From an uncultured Oscillospiraceae bacterium (GTDB lineage Bacteria; Bacillota; Clostridia; Oscillospirales; Oscillospiraceae), in the NCBI GenBank assembly GCA_964415275.1, contig CAYPZF010000002.1, forward strand, positions 1-28,219: a DNA stretch of 28,219 nucleotides, in the 5' to 3' direction. Below are positions 13,181 to 26,565 of this stretch, piece by piece; the stretch's first letter is position 1, and every line of letters starts with the position of its first letter. The notes under the pieces were generated by a model. The model searched no databases and was not told the DNA's origin. It was given only the letters and a program-made list of their open reading frames with translations. A program made the translations under genes and the position numbers.

Positions 13181-15526
13181 CTAGGGCGTGACGGTGGTGC
13201 CCAGGGCCTTTTGGGCGATGGCCTCCAGCAGCAGGGCGTGCTCCACCCGGCCGTCCAGCACCACCACGGTGCCCACCCCATGGGCCACGGCATGGACACA
13301 CCCCTTCACCTTGGGCACCATGCCCCCCGCGATGAGCCCGGCGTCCAGCAGCTCCCTGGCCCGGGCCTGGTCCATGTGGGGAATGCGGGTGGCCTGATTG
13401 TGGTGGTCCACCAGAATGCCGTTGGTGTCGGTGAGAAAGACCAGCTTGTGGGCGGCCATTGCCTCGGCCACGGCCCGGGCCGCGTCGTCGGCGTTGCAGT
13501 TGAGGCCGCCCTCCGGCCCCAGGGCGATGGGGGAAACTACGGGCAAGAAGCCGTTGTCCAGCAGGGTGTGGAGCACCTTGGTGTCCACCCCGGTGATCTC
13601 TCCCACCCGGCCCAAGGCCGGGTCCTTGCAGCGGGCGGTGAGCCCCACGGCGGAGACCCCCAGGGTGCCCAGGGCGGCCACGATGCCCTTGTTCACCTGG
13701 GCGGAGAGAACCATCTCAGCGCAGTCCAGGACGGTCTCGTCGGTGACCCGATAGCCGTCCACAAAGGCGGTTTCCACCCCCAGCCTGTCCAGCAGGGCGG
13801 AGATGTCCTTGCCGCCGCCGTGGACCAGCACCACCCGGGCGCCCACCTGGTGCAGGGCGGCCACGTCCCGCAAGATGCTGTCCGCCGCGCCGGAGGGCCC
13901 CAGGGCGCTGCCGCCGTACTTGAGGACAAGGGTCTTGCCGGTGTACCCCCGCAGGACGGGCAGCACATCCAGAAACCCCCGCACCTTCTCCATGCCGTCC
14001 AGCCCGTGGGCGACGTCGTACGCGTGGAGAAAGGTCTTTGTATATTCTACATCGGAAGGACACTCGATATACACAAGGCCCCGCTTTTGTCGGGTCTCGG
14101 CCCCCTTGCCGGTGATGAGGACAACGGTGGGAGTCTCACAGCCCAGGATGGCCTGGCGGATGGCCTGGCCCCGGTGGGGCTGAATGGAGTAGTCGCAGCC
14201 CTCGGCCTCCACCCAGGCGGCAATCTCCCGGCAGATGGCCTCGGTGTCCTCCTCCCCCGAGTCCTCCTCGGTGAGGATGACCAGGTCGGAGTATCGGCCC
14301 GAAATCTCCCCCAGGTCCCGCCGGCGGTCCAGGGCCTTTTTGCCGGGGCAGCCAAAGACGGTGACGATGCGGCGGCCAGGGTACTCCTCTAGCGTGGACT
14401 GAAACAGCTTCTCAAAGGAGAGCCGGTTGTGGGCGTAGTCTACAATGGCGATGACCCGGTCGTCGGCGTTGGTGTAAATCTCCATTCGGCCGGGCACCCG
14501 TGCCTTCATGAGCCCCACGTAGATGGCCTGCTCCGGGATGCCCAGCCCCTCGCACACGGCGATGGCGGCCAGGGCGTTCTGCACATTGAAGAGGCCGGGC
14601 ATGGTGAGCCGGAATTCCCGGCTGTACCGCAGGGTCTTGACCCGGAAGAGGATGTCGTTGCCGCTCTTGCGCACGTTGGAGCCGTACACCGTGGCGCCCG
14701 GGTCGGTCTGGGAGAAGGTAATCACCCGGGGGCAGCGGCGGGCGGCCGCCAGCACCCGGTCGGCGTGGTCGCTGTCCAGGTTGACGCAGGCCAGGCCGGT
14801 CTGCTGGAAAATTCGCAGCTTGGAGGCAAAATAGTCCTCAAAATCCGGGTGCTCAATGGGGGAGACGTGGTCGTACCCGATGTTCAAAAAGACGGCGGCG
14901 GCGAACTCCACGCCCAGGACCCGGCCGTACTTGAGGCCCTGACTGGAGACCTCCATGGTGAGGTATTCCATCCCCGCGGAGACGCCGTTGGCAAAATGAC
15001 GCGCCAGATCCAGGGGCTCCGGCGTGGTGAGGTGGCTCTCAAAGCGCTCCACCCCGTCGTAGGTGTCAATAGAGCCGATGACGCCGCTCTCGGCCTTCCC
15101 CGCGCCCGCGGCGTATTCGTCAAAGATATACTTGAGATAGTAGGAGGTGGAGGATTTGCCCTTGGTGCCGGTGACCCCCACCACATTAAGCCGGCCGCTG
15201 GGGTGGTTGTAGTAGAAGCCGGCCAGCAGGGCCATGGCCCTGCGCACGTCGTTGACCAGCAGACAGGGGGCCCCCCCGGCCTCGGGATACGGGTGGTCGG
15301 CCAGGTAGAAAAACGCGCCCTTGCGGAGAGCGTCGGCCAGATAGGCCCCCTTGAAGTGGGCCCCCTTGCAGATGAACAGGGTGCCGGGGACCACCTGCCG
15401 GGAGTCGCAGGAGACCAGCGTAACCGGGCGGGCCAGGTCGGCGGCCGGAGGGGCCCCGCCTGTGAGCAGGCCCTCCCGCAGCAGCAGCTGGTAGTAATCG
15501 CCCAGGGTATGATAGTTCTGGTCCAT
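13181..15526 (-). CDS. MurE-type UDP-MurNAc-tripeptide synthetase fused in frame to a C-terminal acetylglutamate kinase (ArgB) domain, 781 aa
   Basis: MurE part: DSRQV.PGTLF, VTGTKGKSS, TTPE, MEVSS, FLN...DH, PGRME, VDYAHN and LITGKG. ArgB part from about 13993: LKYGGS, VHGGG, GYRVTD, NADDAA, LTD, GGMVPKV and HALLLE. No stop lies between them. Start at ATG 15526 after AGAGGT. Confidence 0.9.
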   Translation of the reverse strand: MDQNYHTLGDYYQLLLREGLLTGGAPPAADLARPVTLVSCDSRQVVPGTLFICKGAHFKGAYLADALRKGAFFYLADHPYPEAGGAPCLLVNDVRRAMALLAGFYYNHPSGRLNVVGVTGTKGKSSTSYYLKYIFDEYAAGAGKAESGVIGSIDTYDGVERFESHLTTPEPLDLARHFANGVSAGMEYLTMEVSSQGLKYGRVLGVEFAAAVFLNIGYDHVSPIEHPDFEDYFASKLRIFQQTGLACVNLDSDHADRVLAAARRCPRVITFSQTDPGATVYGSNVRKSGNDILFRVKTLRYSREFRLTMPGLFNVQNALAAIAVCEGLGIPEQAIYVGLMKARVPGRMEIYTNADDRVIAIVDYAHNRLSFEKLFQSTLEEYPGRRIVTVFGCPGKKALDRRRDLGEISGRYSDLVILTEEDSGEEDTEAICREIAAWVEAEGCDYSIQPHRGQAIRQAILGCETPTVVLITGKGAETRQKRGLVYIECPSDVEYTKTFLHAYDVAHGLDGMEKVRGFLDVLPVLRGYTGKTLVLKYGGSALGPSGAADSILRDVAALHQVGARVVLVHGGGKDISALLDRLGVETAFVDGYRVTDETVLDCAEMVLSAQVNKGIVAALGTLGVSAVGLTARCKDPALGRVGEITGVDTKVLHTLLDNGFLPVVSPIALGPEGGLNCNADDAARAVAEAMAAHKLVFLTDTNGILVDHHNQATRIPHMDQARARELLDAGLIAGGMVPKVKGCVHAVAHGVGTVVVLDGRVEHALLLEAIAQKALGTTVTP

Positions 15527-15594
15527 AACTGCACCTCTCTTCCCGTGACAGACGGGGCGCTTGGCCGCCGGCCCCGCACCCCCTTGCCTGTGGC

Positions 15595-16305
15595 TCACAC
15601 TGTCCGCAGGCGTTTGCCGCAGAAGGTGATGGCCTTCTCCACCAGCACCTCCATGGCGTCGATGTAAAAATCGGGCAGACCGTGGTACACCCGGTAGACC
15701 GACAGCTCCGTGCAGCCCAGAATGGCGCTGTCACAGCCCTGGCTCCGCAGGCTGCGGTCGATGGCGGTGAACTTCTCCCGGCTGCCCTTTTCCCCTTTTT
15801 TAATCTCGTCATAGATGACGGCCATAATAAGGCGCTGGGTCTCCGGGTCGGGGGCCACGGGGGTGAGGCCCTGGGCCTGGCAGGCCCGCTGGTACACCCC
15901 GGTCTGGATGGTGCCGTCGGTGGCCAAAATGCCCACCCGGCGGCGGCCGCGGGCGGCCAGGGCCGCGGTGGCCTCCCGCACCATATTGAGAATCGGCACG
16001 TCCACCGCCGCCTGGAGCCTGTCCACAAAATAGTGGGAGGTGTTGCAGGGGATGGCGATGGCGGTGCAGCCGCAGCCGGCCAGAAGGTTAGCGTTGTCCA
16101 GCAGACGGCTGTAGACCACTTCGCCCCGGCCGCTCAAAATGTACTCCGTGCGGTCCGGCATCTCGGTGTCGCTCAAAATCAAGACGGGCAGGTGTTCCTG
16201 GTCGCGGGCGGCCTCGGTCCGGTCTAAAATCCGCTGGTAGAAGATCTGGGTGGCCTGGGGGCCCATGCCGCCGATGACGCCCAGCCGGGCGGTTGGCTCT
16301 GTCAT
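15595..16305 (-). CDS. Aspartate/glutamate racemase family protein, probably aspartate racemase (RacD-like)
   Basis: LGVIGGMGP.AT, DQEH, PDRT, and two catalytic Cys motifs (IPCNTSHYF, LGCTELS). Confidence 0.9.
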   Translation of the reverse strand: MTEPTARLGVIGGMGPQATQIFYQRILDRTEAARDQEHLPVLILSDTEMPDRTEYILSGRGEVVYSRLLDNANLLAGCGCTAIAIPCNTSHYFVDRLQAAVDVPILNMVREATAALAARGRRRVGILATDGTIQTGVYQRACQAQGLTPVAPDPETQRLIMAVIYDEIKKGEKGSREKFTAIDRSLRSQGCDSAILGCTELSVYRVYHGLPDFYIDAMEVLVEKAITFCGKRLRTV

Positions 16306-16314
16306 AACTGCTCC

Positions 16315-17526
16315 TTACTCGGGCCGGTGGTAGTGCTTTTTAAACTTGTAATAGTGACCCAGTTGATTTTTAAGAAGGCGCAGCTTGCTCCGCGCCCCCT
16401 GGTTGGCGGGCCCGTACTTCAGGGCGTTGTGATAGGCCCCGGCCTTGACCAGGGCGCGCATCTCCTGGTGATAGCGGCTGGGGGTGTACCGGTAGGCCAC
16501 CCCCAGGGGCACCATGGTCCAGAGGGAGCGGCCGCAGGCCATCACCGGCTCCAGGTCCCGGCCCAGGACCCGGTCCTCCACCAAAAGCCGGGCGATGTTG
16601 TGTCCGGCGCCGGTGACGTAGTAATTGCTGCGCCCTTGGCGGCAGTTGATTTCAAACACCTTATAGGTTCCGTCGCGCTGGTCGAATTTAAGGTCGAAAT
16701 TGGAGAAGCCGGTGAACTGTACCGCCTCCAGAAATCCGCGCAGCCGGCCGCACAGCGCGTCGTTGGTCTCGGTGAGGATGACCGCGTGGTTGCCGATGCC
16801 GTGGGGAGTGTGCTCCTCCAGCAGGACGTGGCCCAGACACATGAGCTTCACCTGGCTGTTCCGGTCGGAATAGCAGGTGAGCACCCGCATGTAGCTGTCG
16901 TCCCCGGGGATGAAGTCCTGGATGACCATGGAGTCGTCGTACCCCGAGGCGTAGACTTTGTCCAGCACCTCCTCCAGCTCCGCCCGGTCCCGGCAGATAA
17001 AGACCTTTTTGTTCCCCTCAAAGGGGTGGTCCCAGTAGGCCACGCCGTTAGAGGGCTTGCAGACGAAGGGGGGCGGGAAGGGGAGGGTGAAGCCGCGCCC
17101 CATCTCGGCCCGGTGGATGAAGGTGTCGGGGTAGTCGATGCCCATCTGGTCGCACAGGGCGTAAAACCGCTCCTTGTGGATCAGGGTGTTGATGAGGGCG
17201 CCGGGCGCGTAGGGCGCCACGCAGTTGGCGGGGAAGTCCTCCTTGTGCTCGGCGCAGAGCTTTACATAGCTGTCCCCGCAGCCGATGACCAGAATGGTCT
17301 TGTCCGGGTGGGCGGCGGCCACATCGGCCACATTCCCGCAGAATACGGCGGCCTCCTCGTTCTCCGGACAGACGCGGTAGTCAATGATGGCGTTGTCATA
17401 GGCGGGGCCGGAGGGGAACTTGCCGTAACAGATGGAGCGCATGCCGTAGGCCTCGTGAAAGGCGCGGGCCACGCTGTAGACATTGATATCCCCTCCAAAC
17501 AGGAGGGGCAGGAAGTTCAGGTCCAT
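16315..17526 (-). CDS. ATP-grasp carboxylate-amine ligase, D-aspartate ligase (Asl/YxbA) type
   Basis: N-terminal PLLFGGDINVYSVARAFHEAYG, GCGD.YV, KPSN, QDFIPGDD, LLEEH.P..IGN, DLKFD.RDG.YK.FEINCRQGRS.YY. These are ATP-grasp metal/ATP motifs plus the N-terminus I recognise from D-Asp ligases, and the gene sits next to an Asp racemase. Confidence 0.8.
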   Translation of the reverse strand: MDLNFLPLLFGGDINVYSVARAFHEAYGMRSICYGKFPSGPAYDNAIIDYRVCPENEEAAVFCGNVADVAAAHPDKTILVIGCGDSYVKLCAEHKEDFPANCVAPYAPGALINTLIHKERFYALCDQMGIDYPDTFIHRAEMGRGFTLPFPPPFVCKPSNGVAYWDHPFEGNKKVFICRDRAELEEVLDKVYASGYDDSMVIQDFIPGDDSYMRVLTCYSDRNSQVKLMCLGHVLLEEHTPHGIGNHAVILTETNDALCGRLRGFLEAVQFTGFSNFDLKFDQRDGTYKVFEINCRQGRSNYYVTGAGHNIARLLVEDRVLGRDLEPVMACGRSLWTMVPLGVAYRYTPSRYHQEMRALVKAGAYHNALKYGPANQGARSKLRLLKNQLGHYYKFKKHYHRPE

Positions 17527-17714
17527 GAAAACGACACCTCAAACCAGGTTTTTTGACCCCGGACCGGAACGCCGGCCAGAGGGGCCAGGCGGGCGGCGGG
17601 GTGAGCGGCGCGGAGATAATCGGCCTCCTCCCGGGAGAGCCGCAGCTCCCGGCGGACGCGCTCCCCACCCCGGAAGGCGGCGGAAAGCATGGCCTCGAAG
17701 GACAAAACATCCAT
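17517..17714 (-). CDS. Small hypothetical protein, 65 aa
   Basis: ATG 17714 follows GGGGAGA. It fills the gap between rel and the ligase in the same orientation and overlaps the ligase start by 10 nt. Sequence: MDVLSFEAMLSAAFRGGERVRRELRLSREEADYLRAAHP...KTWFEVSFSWT. Confidence 0.65.
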   Translation of the reverse strand: MDVLSFEAMLSAAFRGGERVRRELRLSREEADYLRAAHPAARLAPLAGVPVRGQKTWFEVSFSWT

Positions 17715-25592: not shown

Positions 25593-26498
25593 TCAGCTCA
25601 GGAACATATTCACATCCTCCACGGTGAGGCCGGTCTGGAGGGCCAGGTTGATGCCGTAGCCGATGACCTTGGCCAGATCGGCGACCTGGCTGTCGATCTC
25701 CCGGGGGGTGACCATGAGCCCCTCGGTCACGCCGGCCAGGGCCTCAGGCTCCAGCTCGCTCTGGCCGGCCTCCGCCAGGATGTCGGCGCACAGCGTGCCC
25801 GCGTCCACCACGGTGGGCACCCCCACCGCCACCACGGGAACACCCAGCGTCTCCCGGTTGAGCGCGGCCCGGGCGTTGCCCACGCCGGAGCCGGGGACGA
25901 TGCCGGTGTCGGCCAGCTGGATGGTGCGGCAAACCCGGCTCAGGCTTCGGGAGGCCAGGGCGTCCACGGCGATGACGCAGGCGGGCTGAATCCTCCCGCT
26001 CACCGCCCGGACCAGCTCACCGCTCTCCACCCCCGTGGCGCCCAGCACCCCGGCGGCCAGGACGGCCACCGGCCGGAAGAGGCCGAACTGCTCCGGCATC
26101 CGCTCCACCAGGTGCCGGGTGACCATGGTGTGCTCGGCGGCCTTGGGGCCGATGGCGTCGGGCGTGATGGCCCGGTTTCCGAGGCCCACCACCAGCGCGG
26201 GGGCCCCCGCGGGCAGCGCCAGCAGGGTCAGCAGCTCTCCCGCCAGGGCGCTCACCGCCCGGGAAAACGCGCCCTCCTCCCGCCGGGCCAGCCCGTCCAG
26301 CGTGATGGTGATATAGTTGCCCACCGGCTTGCCCAGGGCCTCGGCGCCCGTCTGGTCCAAAATACGCACGGTGGTGACGGGAAACCCCTCCCGCTCACTG
26401 TCCGACGCCTCCACGCCGCTCAGTCTGGTCTGCACCCTGGCGCTCTGCTCCCAAATCTCTTTGGCCTCCGCCGCCAGGTCTGTTCTGCGTTTTAACAT
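25593..26498 (-). CDS. gpr: Spore germination protease (GPR endopeptidase)
   Basis: RTDLA.E, GLGN..ITPDAIGP, VDALASR, DTGI.PGSGVGN.R, GVPTVVDA and LMVTPREID. Divergent from rpsT as in Bacillus. Start at ATG 26498 after GAGGAG. Confidence 0.95.
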   Translation of the reverse strand: MLKRRTDLAAEAKEIWEQSARVQTRLSGVEASDSEREGFPVTTVRILDQTGAEALGKPVGNYITITLDGLARREEGAFSRAVSALAGELLTLLALPAGAPALVVGLGNRAITPDAIGPKAAEHTMVTRHLVERMPEQFGLFRPVAVLAAGVLGATGVESGELVRAVSGRIQPACVIAVDALASRSLSRVCRTIQLADTGIVPGSGVGNARAALNRETLGVPVVAVGVPTVVDAGTLCADILAEAGQSELEPEALAGVTEGLMVTPREIDSQVADLAKVIGYGINLALQTGLTVEDVNMFLS

Positions 26499-26565
26499 GG
26501 TGTTCTCCTCTCTTCCCGGCATCGCCGCATCAAAAGATGCAATGCCCGGCGCGATTTCTTCCCCC

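Follow-up and report, generated by a model that had tools for sequence, protein, structure and literature searches.

Which amino acid does a MurE ligase add when the loop that selects it lacks the residues for diaminopimelate (DAP)? This question is raised by a 28,219-bp stretch of contig CAYPZF010000002.1 (assembly GCA_964415275.1) of an uncultured Oscillospiraceae bacterium, referred to below as the window. At 13181..15526 the window encodes a protein of 781 amino acids plus stop, in which a MurE-like ligase is fused in frame to an ArgB-type amino-acid kinase (Pfam, TIGR01085, and TIGR00761; the N-terminus matches those of homologues); this gene and all other features given with window coordinates lie on the reverse strand. 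The loop of its MurE C-terminal domain, T-E-E-D-S-G-E-E-D, would be the amino-acid-selecting loop of a second UDP-MurNAc-L-Ala-D-Glu:amino-acid ligase. In our reading, the gene probably encodes an accessory, non-DAP MurE, which adds L-ornithine (Orn) or L-lysine (Lys) for a D-Asp-branched stem peptide.

Position of the loop and its protein family

The loop was located at 14246..14272 by translation, HMMER alignments, and an AlphaFold2 model; it comprises residues 443–451 of the 805-codon frame P0001 (13181–15598) and residues 419–427 of the 781-aa protein, which starts with the ATG at 15526. A preliminary description of this DNA had put the segment at the position of DNPR of meso-DAP-adding MurE, and this was borne out by a HMMER search against all PDB chains. 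LVILTEEDSGEEDTEAICREI was matched with the MurE of Mycobacterium tuberculosis (2wtz, E 1.6e-60), the alignment being gap-free for more than 30 residues on each side of the loop, and its partner in Thermotoga maritima MurE (4bub), where the loop reads TTDDPRGED, was VILTTDDPRGEDPEQI. Therefore, E-D-S-G (14255..14266; HMMER alignments and family columns) stands at the DNPR place, and the Asn and Arg of that motif were not found there. The partner of the loop in plant PAP11 was LTSDNPGNEDP. In the AlphaFold2 model (mean pLDDT 87.8), the loop lies between a strand (415–418) and a helix (428–441) with pLDDT of 94–97, and the MurE part superimposed on the MurE structures of M. tuberculosis, E. coli, S. 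aureus, and T. maritima with TM values of 0.86–0.91. The DNA of the loop was identical across contigs of three independent metagenome studies.

The MurE-like part occupies about 14009–15526, its MurE domain comprising residues 1–505, and contains Mur_ligase_M and Mur_ligase_C domains (Pfam), while the Mur ligase N-domain gave a weak Pfam match only. With TIGR01085 (murE; cut-off 257.3), the whole protein scored 295.6 bits, or 297.3 bits when the genome was searched. GTKGKS (P-loop), TTPE, EVSSQ, DH, and the Lys of SKLRIF were all present in the 781-aa protein; Pfam, the model, and these motifs together gave a three-domain Mur ligase fold with the P-loop and the conserved catalytic residues.

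Fused homologues with 65–82% identity were found across many Oscillospiraceae; carriers with public names were Intestinimonas butyriciproducens, Pseudoflavonifractor phocaeensis, and Lawsonibacter, and their proteins were mostly annotated as 'acetylglutamate kinase'. Of the close fused homologues, 84 could be parsed, and each of them contains EED[S/A/P]GEE; the loop of I. butyriciproducens is EEDPGEED. When the MurE part was used as the query of an exhaustive HMMER search, a large set of stand-alone relatives of about 500 aa was also retrieved (38–66% identity, 330–735 bits), while the best solved MurE, at only 208 bits, was far more distant than these stand-alone proteins.

All column counts given here were taken from an alignment of 113 family representatives (A1), the consensus of which was DYAHN .. 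FGCPGxKA..RR..LG .. TEDDPGxE .. GKGxE. The columns equivalent to DNPR contained D (62) or E (35); D (99) or N (7); P (77) or S (20); and G (62), A (19), D (7), N (7), or R (2), i.e., Arg was absent from the fourth column in 111 of the 113 representatives. The window protein kept 59 of the 60 columns conserved in at least 90% of the family, including GTKGKS and the Lys of SKLRIF. As a family member it is normal and intact, and its loop represents a frequent variant of the [DE]-D-[PS]-[GA] signature. All features of the non-DAP family were found in it: DYAHN, G-x-x-G-x-K-A..RR, T-x-[DE]-D-[PS]-[GAND], GKGxE, and clustering with the sole MurEs of Lys and Orn genera. We failed to split the MurEs of Clostridia into two types with the A1 profile, as there was no clean break: the scores were continuous below about 490 bits, and only proteins with at least 587 bits were counted as family members. 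NCBIfam sub-models for DAP and Lys ligases did not discriminate either (329 and 328 bits, all far below their cut-offs); the L-lysine ligase equivalog NF010628 scored 327.9 bits against a cut-off of 536, indicating a related protein and not a member.

Scanning the species-representative genomes, we found named family members in Enterococcus spp. (loops DDPA and DNPN), Atopococcus tabaci (DDPD), Collinsella aerofaciens and Enorma (both EDPA), Olsenella sp. (DDPW), Atopobium sp. (EDCN), Gleimia coleocanis (EDPN), a Sphaerochaetaceae metagenome-assembled genome (MAG; DDPG), Clostridium aminobutyricum (EDAG), and Bariatricus (EDPG), as well as in Lachnospiraceae, Anaerovoracaceae, and Arcanobacterium, in the last of which the loop was not parsed. 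The family protein was the only MurE in five genomes, those of C. aerofaciens, two Enterococcus species, A. tabaci, and G. coleocanis, and the window MurE was 35–49% identical over its full length to the sole MurEs of other genomes. Enterococci use L-Lys, and the wall of Atopococcus is of the Lys type. The wall of C. aerofaciens was reportedly found by Kageyama in 1999 to contain L-Orn-D-Asp; our literature search retrieved no explicit text on the Collinsella chemotype. Peptidoglycan of Olsenella uli is A4-beta L-Orn-D-Asp (PMC3035265). Atopobium is listed as A4-alpha in a source which credits A4-beta to the paper moving Eubacterium aerofaciens to Collinsella (PMC11382707). As a signature, the loop is ordinary and marks an already known kind of enzyme, the non-DAP MurE.

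What is unusual is the context, in which a second MurE stands beside one of the DAP type and is fused to ArgB; the literature search found no paper on a MurE-ArgB fusion. The assembly is a 1.24-Mb MAG with 75% completeness, and a profile search of its contigs revealed that a canonical MurE is also present, split over two contig ends. Its N-terminal part is located on C116 behind a penicillin-binding protein gene, and its C-terminal part, which contains VVVPSDNPRSLAPE, is located on C151 ahead of mraY and ftsW. The loop of this canonical copy is SDNPRSLAP with a net charge of 0. With a DNPR-type MurE elsewhere in the genome, the window gene is therefore an accessory second MurE and not the housekeeping one; since the canonical murE is broken across contig ends, annotation could miss it and take the window gene for the only MurE. 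Canonical MurE was found in 29 of 30 relatives of the same order, nearly always at about 500 bits; in the remaining one, an 85%-complete MAG, it had no match at E 1e-40. The fused gene occurred in only 4 of the 30, in addition to this genome.

Basic diamino acid as the probable substrate

In meso-DAP-adding MurE, the Asn and Arg of DNPR form hydrogen bonds with the distal carboxylate of DAP, while the first Asp of the motif, together with E468 in E. coli or E460 in S. aureus, holds the side-chain amine; the Lys enzyme of S. aureus has DNPA and an acidic cavity and accepts Orn poorly (PMC3829189). The statements of the preliminary description on the Arg of DNPR, the DNPA of S. aureus, and the acidic pocket agree with this source. 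The counterpart of E468/E460 in the alignment is the Glu of G-K-G-A-E (14096..14110; HMMER alignment and family columns), which replaces the canonical GKGHE and was kept in 91 of the 113 family members. F-G-C-P-G-K-K (14336..14356; same evidence) replaces the canonical FGxGGDRD; its Lys, kept in 106 of the 113, would be the counterpart of Arg389 of E. coli MurE by our own residue count.

It had been proposed that the loss of the Arg and the gain of several acidic residues fit a basic diamino acid. The first half of this argument stands, as the family and the neighbouring genes agree with it; the acidic gain is striking only in comparison with the canonical MurE of the same genome. The net charge of the nine residues after Thr is -6 in the window protein, the most acidic class of the family (median -4); by our count, the same stretch has -4 in M. 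tuberculosis, -3 in T. maritima, and 0 in the canonical copy. Since all MurEs share the acidic xEDP tail, it is the lost Asn and Arg that are informative. Because both are missing, Glu is in the first position, and the Glu of GKGAE is kept, a basic diamino acid lacking the distal carboxylate is the most likely substrate; taking all the evidence together, we regard such a substrate as highly probable.

Orn and Lys cannot be told apart by the loop, as the preliminary description had also stated; family members of both wall types share the same kinds of loop. A rule based on the first position of the motif (Glu for the shorter Orn) was rejected, as the Olsenella member reads DDPW and O. uli contains L-Orn-D-Asp. 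The only argument favouring Orn is the fusion to ArgB, which tilts the choice slightly in that direction. The kinase part (about 13184–13936; Pfam AA_kinase) passed TIGR00761 with 198–202 bits against a cut-off of 151.3 and contains the motifs of acetylglutamate kinase (NAGK): KYGGSA, HGGG, GYRVTD, NCNADD, and GGMVPK. It superimposed on hexameric, arginine-sensitive NAGK structures with TM values of 0.85–0.90 at 39–40% identity. At the position of the Tyr of ALPY in housekeeping ArgB, V, R, or I was found in the fused kinase domain. The domain thus fits an arginine-blind extra NAGK feeding ornithine. Stand-alone argB (266 bits) was located between argJ and argD in the same genome, where lysA fragments were also found; both Orn (argJ-argB-argD) and Lys (lysA) can, as predicted from these genes, be made. 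Considering all this, we give L-ornithine as the substrate slightly less than an even chance.

L-lysine is a candidate that we put forward tentatively, and the same applies to the alternative in which the ligase adds Lys and the ArgB domain serves as a scaffold, oligomerisation, or regulatory domain instead of supplying the substrate. Family members are the sole MurE in Enterococcus and Atopococcus, both of the Lys type, lysA is present, and the resemblance of the kinase domain to hexameric NAGKs would allow it to serve assembly. Findings on the relatives argue in the same direction and weigh against Orn: besides the loops shared by Lys-type and Orn-type members, the unfused P0272 and the kinase-truncated protein of P. 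phocaeensis nest inside the fused clade of the tree, and truncated kinases in P0125 and P0127 lack KYGG and GGMxPK while the loop is unchanged. The kinase part appears dispensable or decaying in some lineages with the MurE loop constant. On the other hand, the catalytic motifs of NAGK (KYGG, HGGG, GYRVTD, NCNADD, and GGMxPK) are complete in the majority of fused members, as would be expected if the kinase were functional in the ornithine pathway, and among the genomes tested, the nearest named orthologues of the neighbouring ATP-grasp ligase and racemase occur in Collinsella, reportedly of the L-Orn-D-Asp type.

As for the forms of the degraded domain, the kinase of P. phocaeensis (L025:4001-5500) is reduced to a dead remnant; such remnants (P0125, P0127, and L025) keep only the N-helix and the C-lobe, and P0272/L016 has no kinase domain. 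The window copy itself lacks 24 bases (8 codons, SGKDGGLL) at 13639/13640 in comparison with a more than 99% identical contig from an independent biogas run. A pig-gut run reads into the same SGKDGGLL letters, the long form was present in 74 of 75 parsed homologues, the site is flanked by GAGC/GAGC, and no contig bridging 13619–13645 was found in the likely source run. With the long form elsewhere and the site unbridged, the 8-residue gap is therefore either a strain variant or an assembly slip.

The neighbouring genes, a proposed D-Asp branch, and two possible walls

Upstream of the fused gene, the window encodes an Asp/Glu-type amino-acid racemase (15595..16305; PF01177 at 2e-44, TIGR00035 at 212 bits), an ATP-grasp carboxylate-amine ligase of a D-aspartate-ligase-like family (16315..17526; identified by orthologues and annotated relatives), and, at the head of the module, a conserved 65-aa open reading frame (ORF; 17517..17714; conserved context, no Pfam match). 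In the proposed pathway, the racemase and the ATP-grasp ligase would attach a D-amino acid (probably D-Asp) to the side-chain amine left free in the residue added by the window MurE. The product would be an A4-type stem peptide made alongside the DAP-type peptide from the MurE of the dcw cluster.

The gene order small ORF, ATP-grasp, racemase, MurE(-kinase), and M16 peptidase, located behind recJ-relA, is repeated in Intestinimonas and one more MAG; the racemase stands next to the paralogue in the window and in most contexts read, and the unfused 508-aa version is found in the same relA context. Among 31 related genomes, close ATP-grasp orthologues (58–70% identity) were found in exactly the five fused-MurE genomes, beside the fused gene. 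The ATP-grasp protein had no sequence match in PDB and only sub-threshold matches in Pfam. Its orthologue in C. aerofaciens (48% identity, E 1e-120) is directly followed by an orthologue of the racemase (44% identity), and its orthologue in A. tabaci (31% identity, E 3e-68) directly follows murE; Sporosarcina, Planococcus, and Filibacter have homologues of the latter under the names 'carboxylate--amine ligase' or 'D-aspartate ligase'. In four other Clostridia with two MurEs, the ATP-grasp gene was within about 1 kb of the non-DAP MurE in three and about 20 kb from it in the fourth, the Lachnospiraceae genome G036; in an Anaerovoracaceae genome with only a non-DAP MurE, it was adjacent.

Several points weigh against our reading of the gene as a non-DAP MurE of a D-Asp-branching module. 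The D-aspartate ligase names result from automatic annotation. The A409R variant of S. aureus MurE has no DAP activity, so that the motif is not the sole determinant of specificity (PMC3829189), and T. maritima MurE adds Lys though its loop reads DDPR. Faecalibacterium is listed only with meso-DAP, and Oscillibacter is without an entry (PMC11382707); the literature search found no wall chemotype for Intestinimonas or Flavonifractor.

It is improbable that the protein is not a peptidoglycan position-3 ligase at all but a pseudoenzyme similar to plant PAP11, or an enzyme acting on another acceptor, polymer, or non-diamino acid. PAP11, a plant MurE-like protein, has DNPG at this position and sits in the plastid RNA polymerase, and the unusual fusion partner and the conserved 65-aa ORF also speak for this reading; nevertheless, the 59 conserved columns kept by the window protein include the ATP and UDP-MurNAc-dipeptide motifs, and the full-length identity to sole MurEs and the TIGR01085 score above the cut-off also argue against it. 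It is very improbable that the enzyme is a redundant housekeeping ligase for meso-DAP (or LL-DAP or lanthionine): public names of homologues include '2,6-diaminopimelate ligase' and the NCBIfam DAP and Lys models score alike, but neither Arg nor Asn is available for the distal carboxylate in a loop of such negative charge, the family provides the sole MurE of non-DAP taxa, a DNPR MurE is already present in the genome, and the gene strictly co-occurs with a ligase that needs a free side-chain amine.

The small ORF (62–65 aa in its relatives, with AAFRGGE..RRELRLT.EEA.Y ... W[FY]E[IV][ST]F) overlaps the start of the ATP-grasp gene; further copies were found at L013:4862-5053 and L015:5892-6080, and it was not called in the unfused context L016. 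A LysW-like carrier function, with the ATP-grasp protein as LysX and the kinase as LysZ, was considered and rejected: no zinc ribbon, acidic C-terminus, or Pfam match was detected. In Bariatricus massiliensis (G038), the canonical MurE, the non-DAP MurE, and the ATP-grasp gene lie within 8 kb on one strand (C11:639019-646900). Two genomes of the same family as the window genome (G007 and G008) encode ATP-grasp homologues with 40–41% identity and only a canonical DAP-type MurE; these homologues may be a different branch-adding ligase. In one MAG, an asparagine-synthase-like gene (GATase_7 and Asn_synthase) follows a stand-alone family member (L018:7532-9397), which by analogy brings to mind that lactic acid bacteria amidate D-Asp bridges or DAP. 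Landfill, biogas-fermenter, bioreactor, and pig-gut metagenomes of several studies contain DNA near-identical to 13181–17714, suggesting an organism of anaerobic digesters and the gut; RNA data were absent among the public runs carrying this DNA.

Regarding the wall that each MurE would serve, vegetative or spore cortex, the window encodes the germination protease GPR (25593–26522; Pfam Peptidase_A25, 8.7e-76), and the organism is therefore an endospore former. The spore cortex of Lysinibacillus sphaericus reportedly contains DAP, as described by Tipper in the 1970s. Its vegetative wall is Lys-Asp (PMC5794956). GPR was present in all five genomes with two MurEs (this genome and the four other Clostridia) and absent from all six with only a non-DAP MurE, but kinship confounds this comparison. 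In a sample drawn from the whole class, GPR was found in 9 of 9 carriers, and with a background of 82% the test has no power. A Lysinibacillus-like split between cells and a DAP cortex is therefore still hypothetical. More specifically, and rather speculatively, this spore-forming clade of Oscillospiraceae might build an Orn-D-Asp wall by means of the module and a DAP wall, perhaps only that of the cortex, by means of the dcw MurE. In this scenario, the MurE-fused NAGK, devoid of the N-helix Tyr typical of arginine-inhibited kinases, would be a valve blind to arginine through which the supply of ornithine is coupled to the synthesis of the wall.

By itself, the loop contributes no more than a family assignment. 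Together with the family, it indicates that these proteins, publicly annotated as 'acetylglutamate kinase' or 'DAP ligase', are non-DAP MurEs. If Orn or Lys does occur together with D-Asp in the walls of Intestinimonas, Pseudoflavonifractor, and Lawsonibacter, the host sensors NOD1 and NOD2 would perceive their muropeptides in a different way, and hydrolases and phage lysins would cleave these walls otherwise than the DAP-type walls that are assumed for Oscillospiraceae. The two coexisting MurE types would then be a clostridial counterpart of the vegetative-versus-cortex split of Lysinibacillus.

Comparison with known systems

One of the closest known systems is the L-Lys MurE of Lactobacillales (NF010628/PRK14022 type), which shares with the window protein DYAHN, G-x-x-G-x-K-A..RR, T-x-[DE]-D-P-x-x-E, and GKGxE and likewise lacks the Arg; the ATP-grasp ligase directly after murE in Atopococcus also resembles the arrangement found here. 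However, the window copy is only 35–36% identical to these enzymes, belongs to a separate clade of the tree, has a C-terminal ArgB domain, and is the second MurE beside one of the DAP type. Pairs of D-Asp ligase and Asp racemase occur as Aslfm/Racfm in E. faecium and AslA/RacD in L. lactis; a link of our ATP-grasp protein to Aslfm is suggested by the annotation of relatives. The A4-beta systems of Coriobacteriia have the same MurE family with 42–49% identity and loops EDPA (C. aerofaciens) and DDPW (Olsenella sp.). In C. aerofaciens, unlike in the window, the MurE is the sole one and unfused, and murE is apart from the ligase-racemase pair.

The MurE of S. aureus (4C12/4C13) resembles the window enzyme in the loss of the Arg, the acidic pocket, and the fold (TM 0.88), the counterparts of its D406 and E460 being Glu and Glu; however, the two are only 23% identical (114 bits), and the S. 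aureus enzyme is of the canonical GGxRD/GKGHE type. With meso-DAP-adding MurEs (1E8C, 2WTZ, and the dcw copy of the same genome), the window enzyme shares the three-domain fold and the strand-loop-helix arrangement, and it differs from them in EDSG instead of DNPR, PGKKA instead of GGDRD, and GKGAE instead of GKGHE. Finally, L. sphaericus resembles the present organism in forming spores and in being potentially capable of two stem-peptide chemistries with two MurE activities, but it belongs to a different class; in the organism studied here, the MurE of the dcw cluster is of the DAP type, and most of its relatives have only that one.

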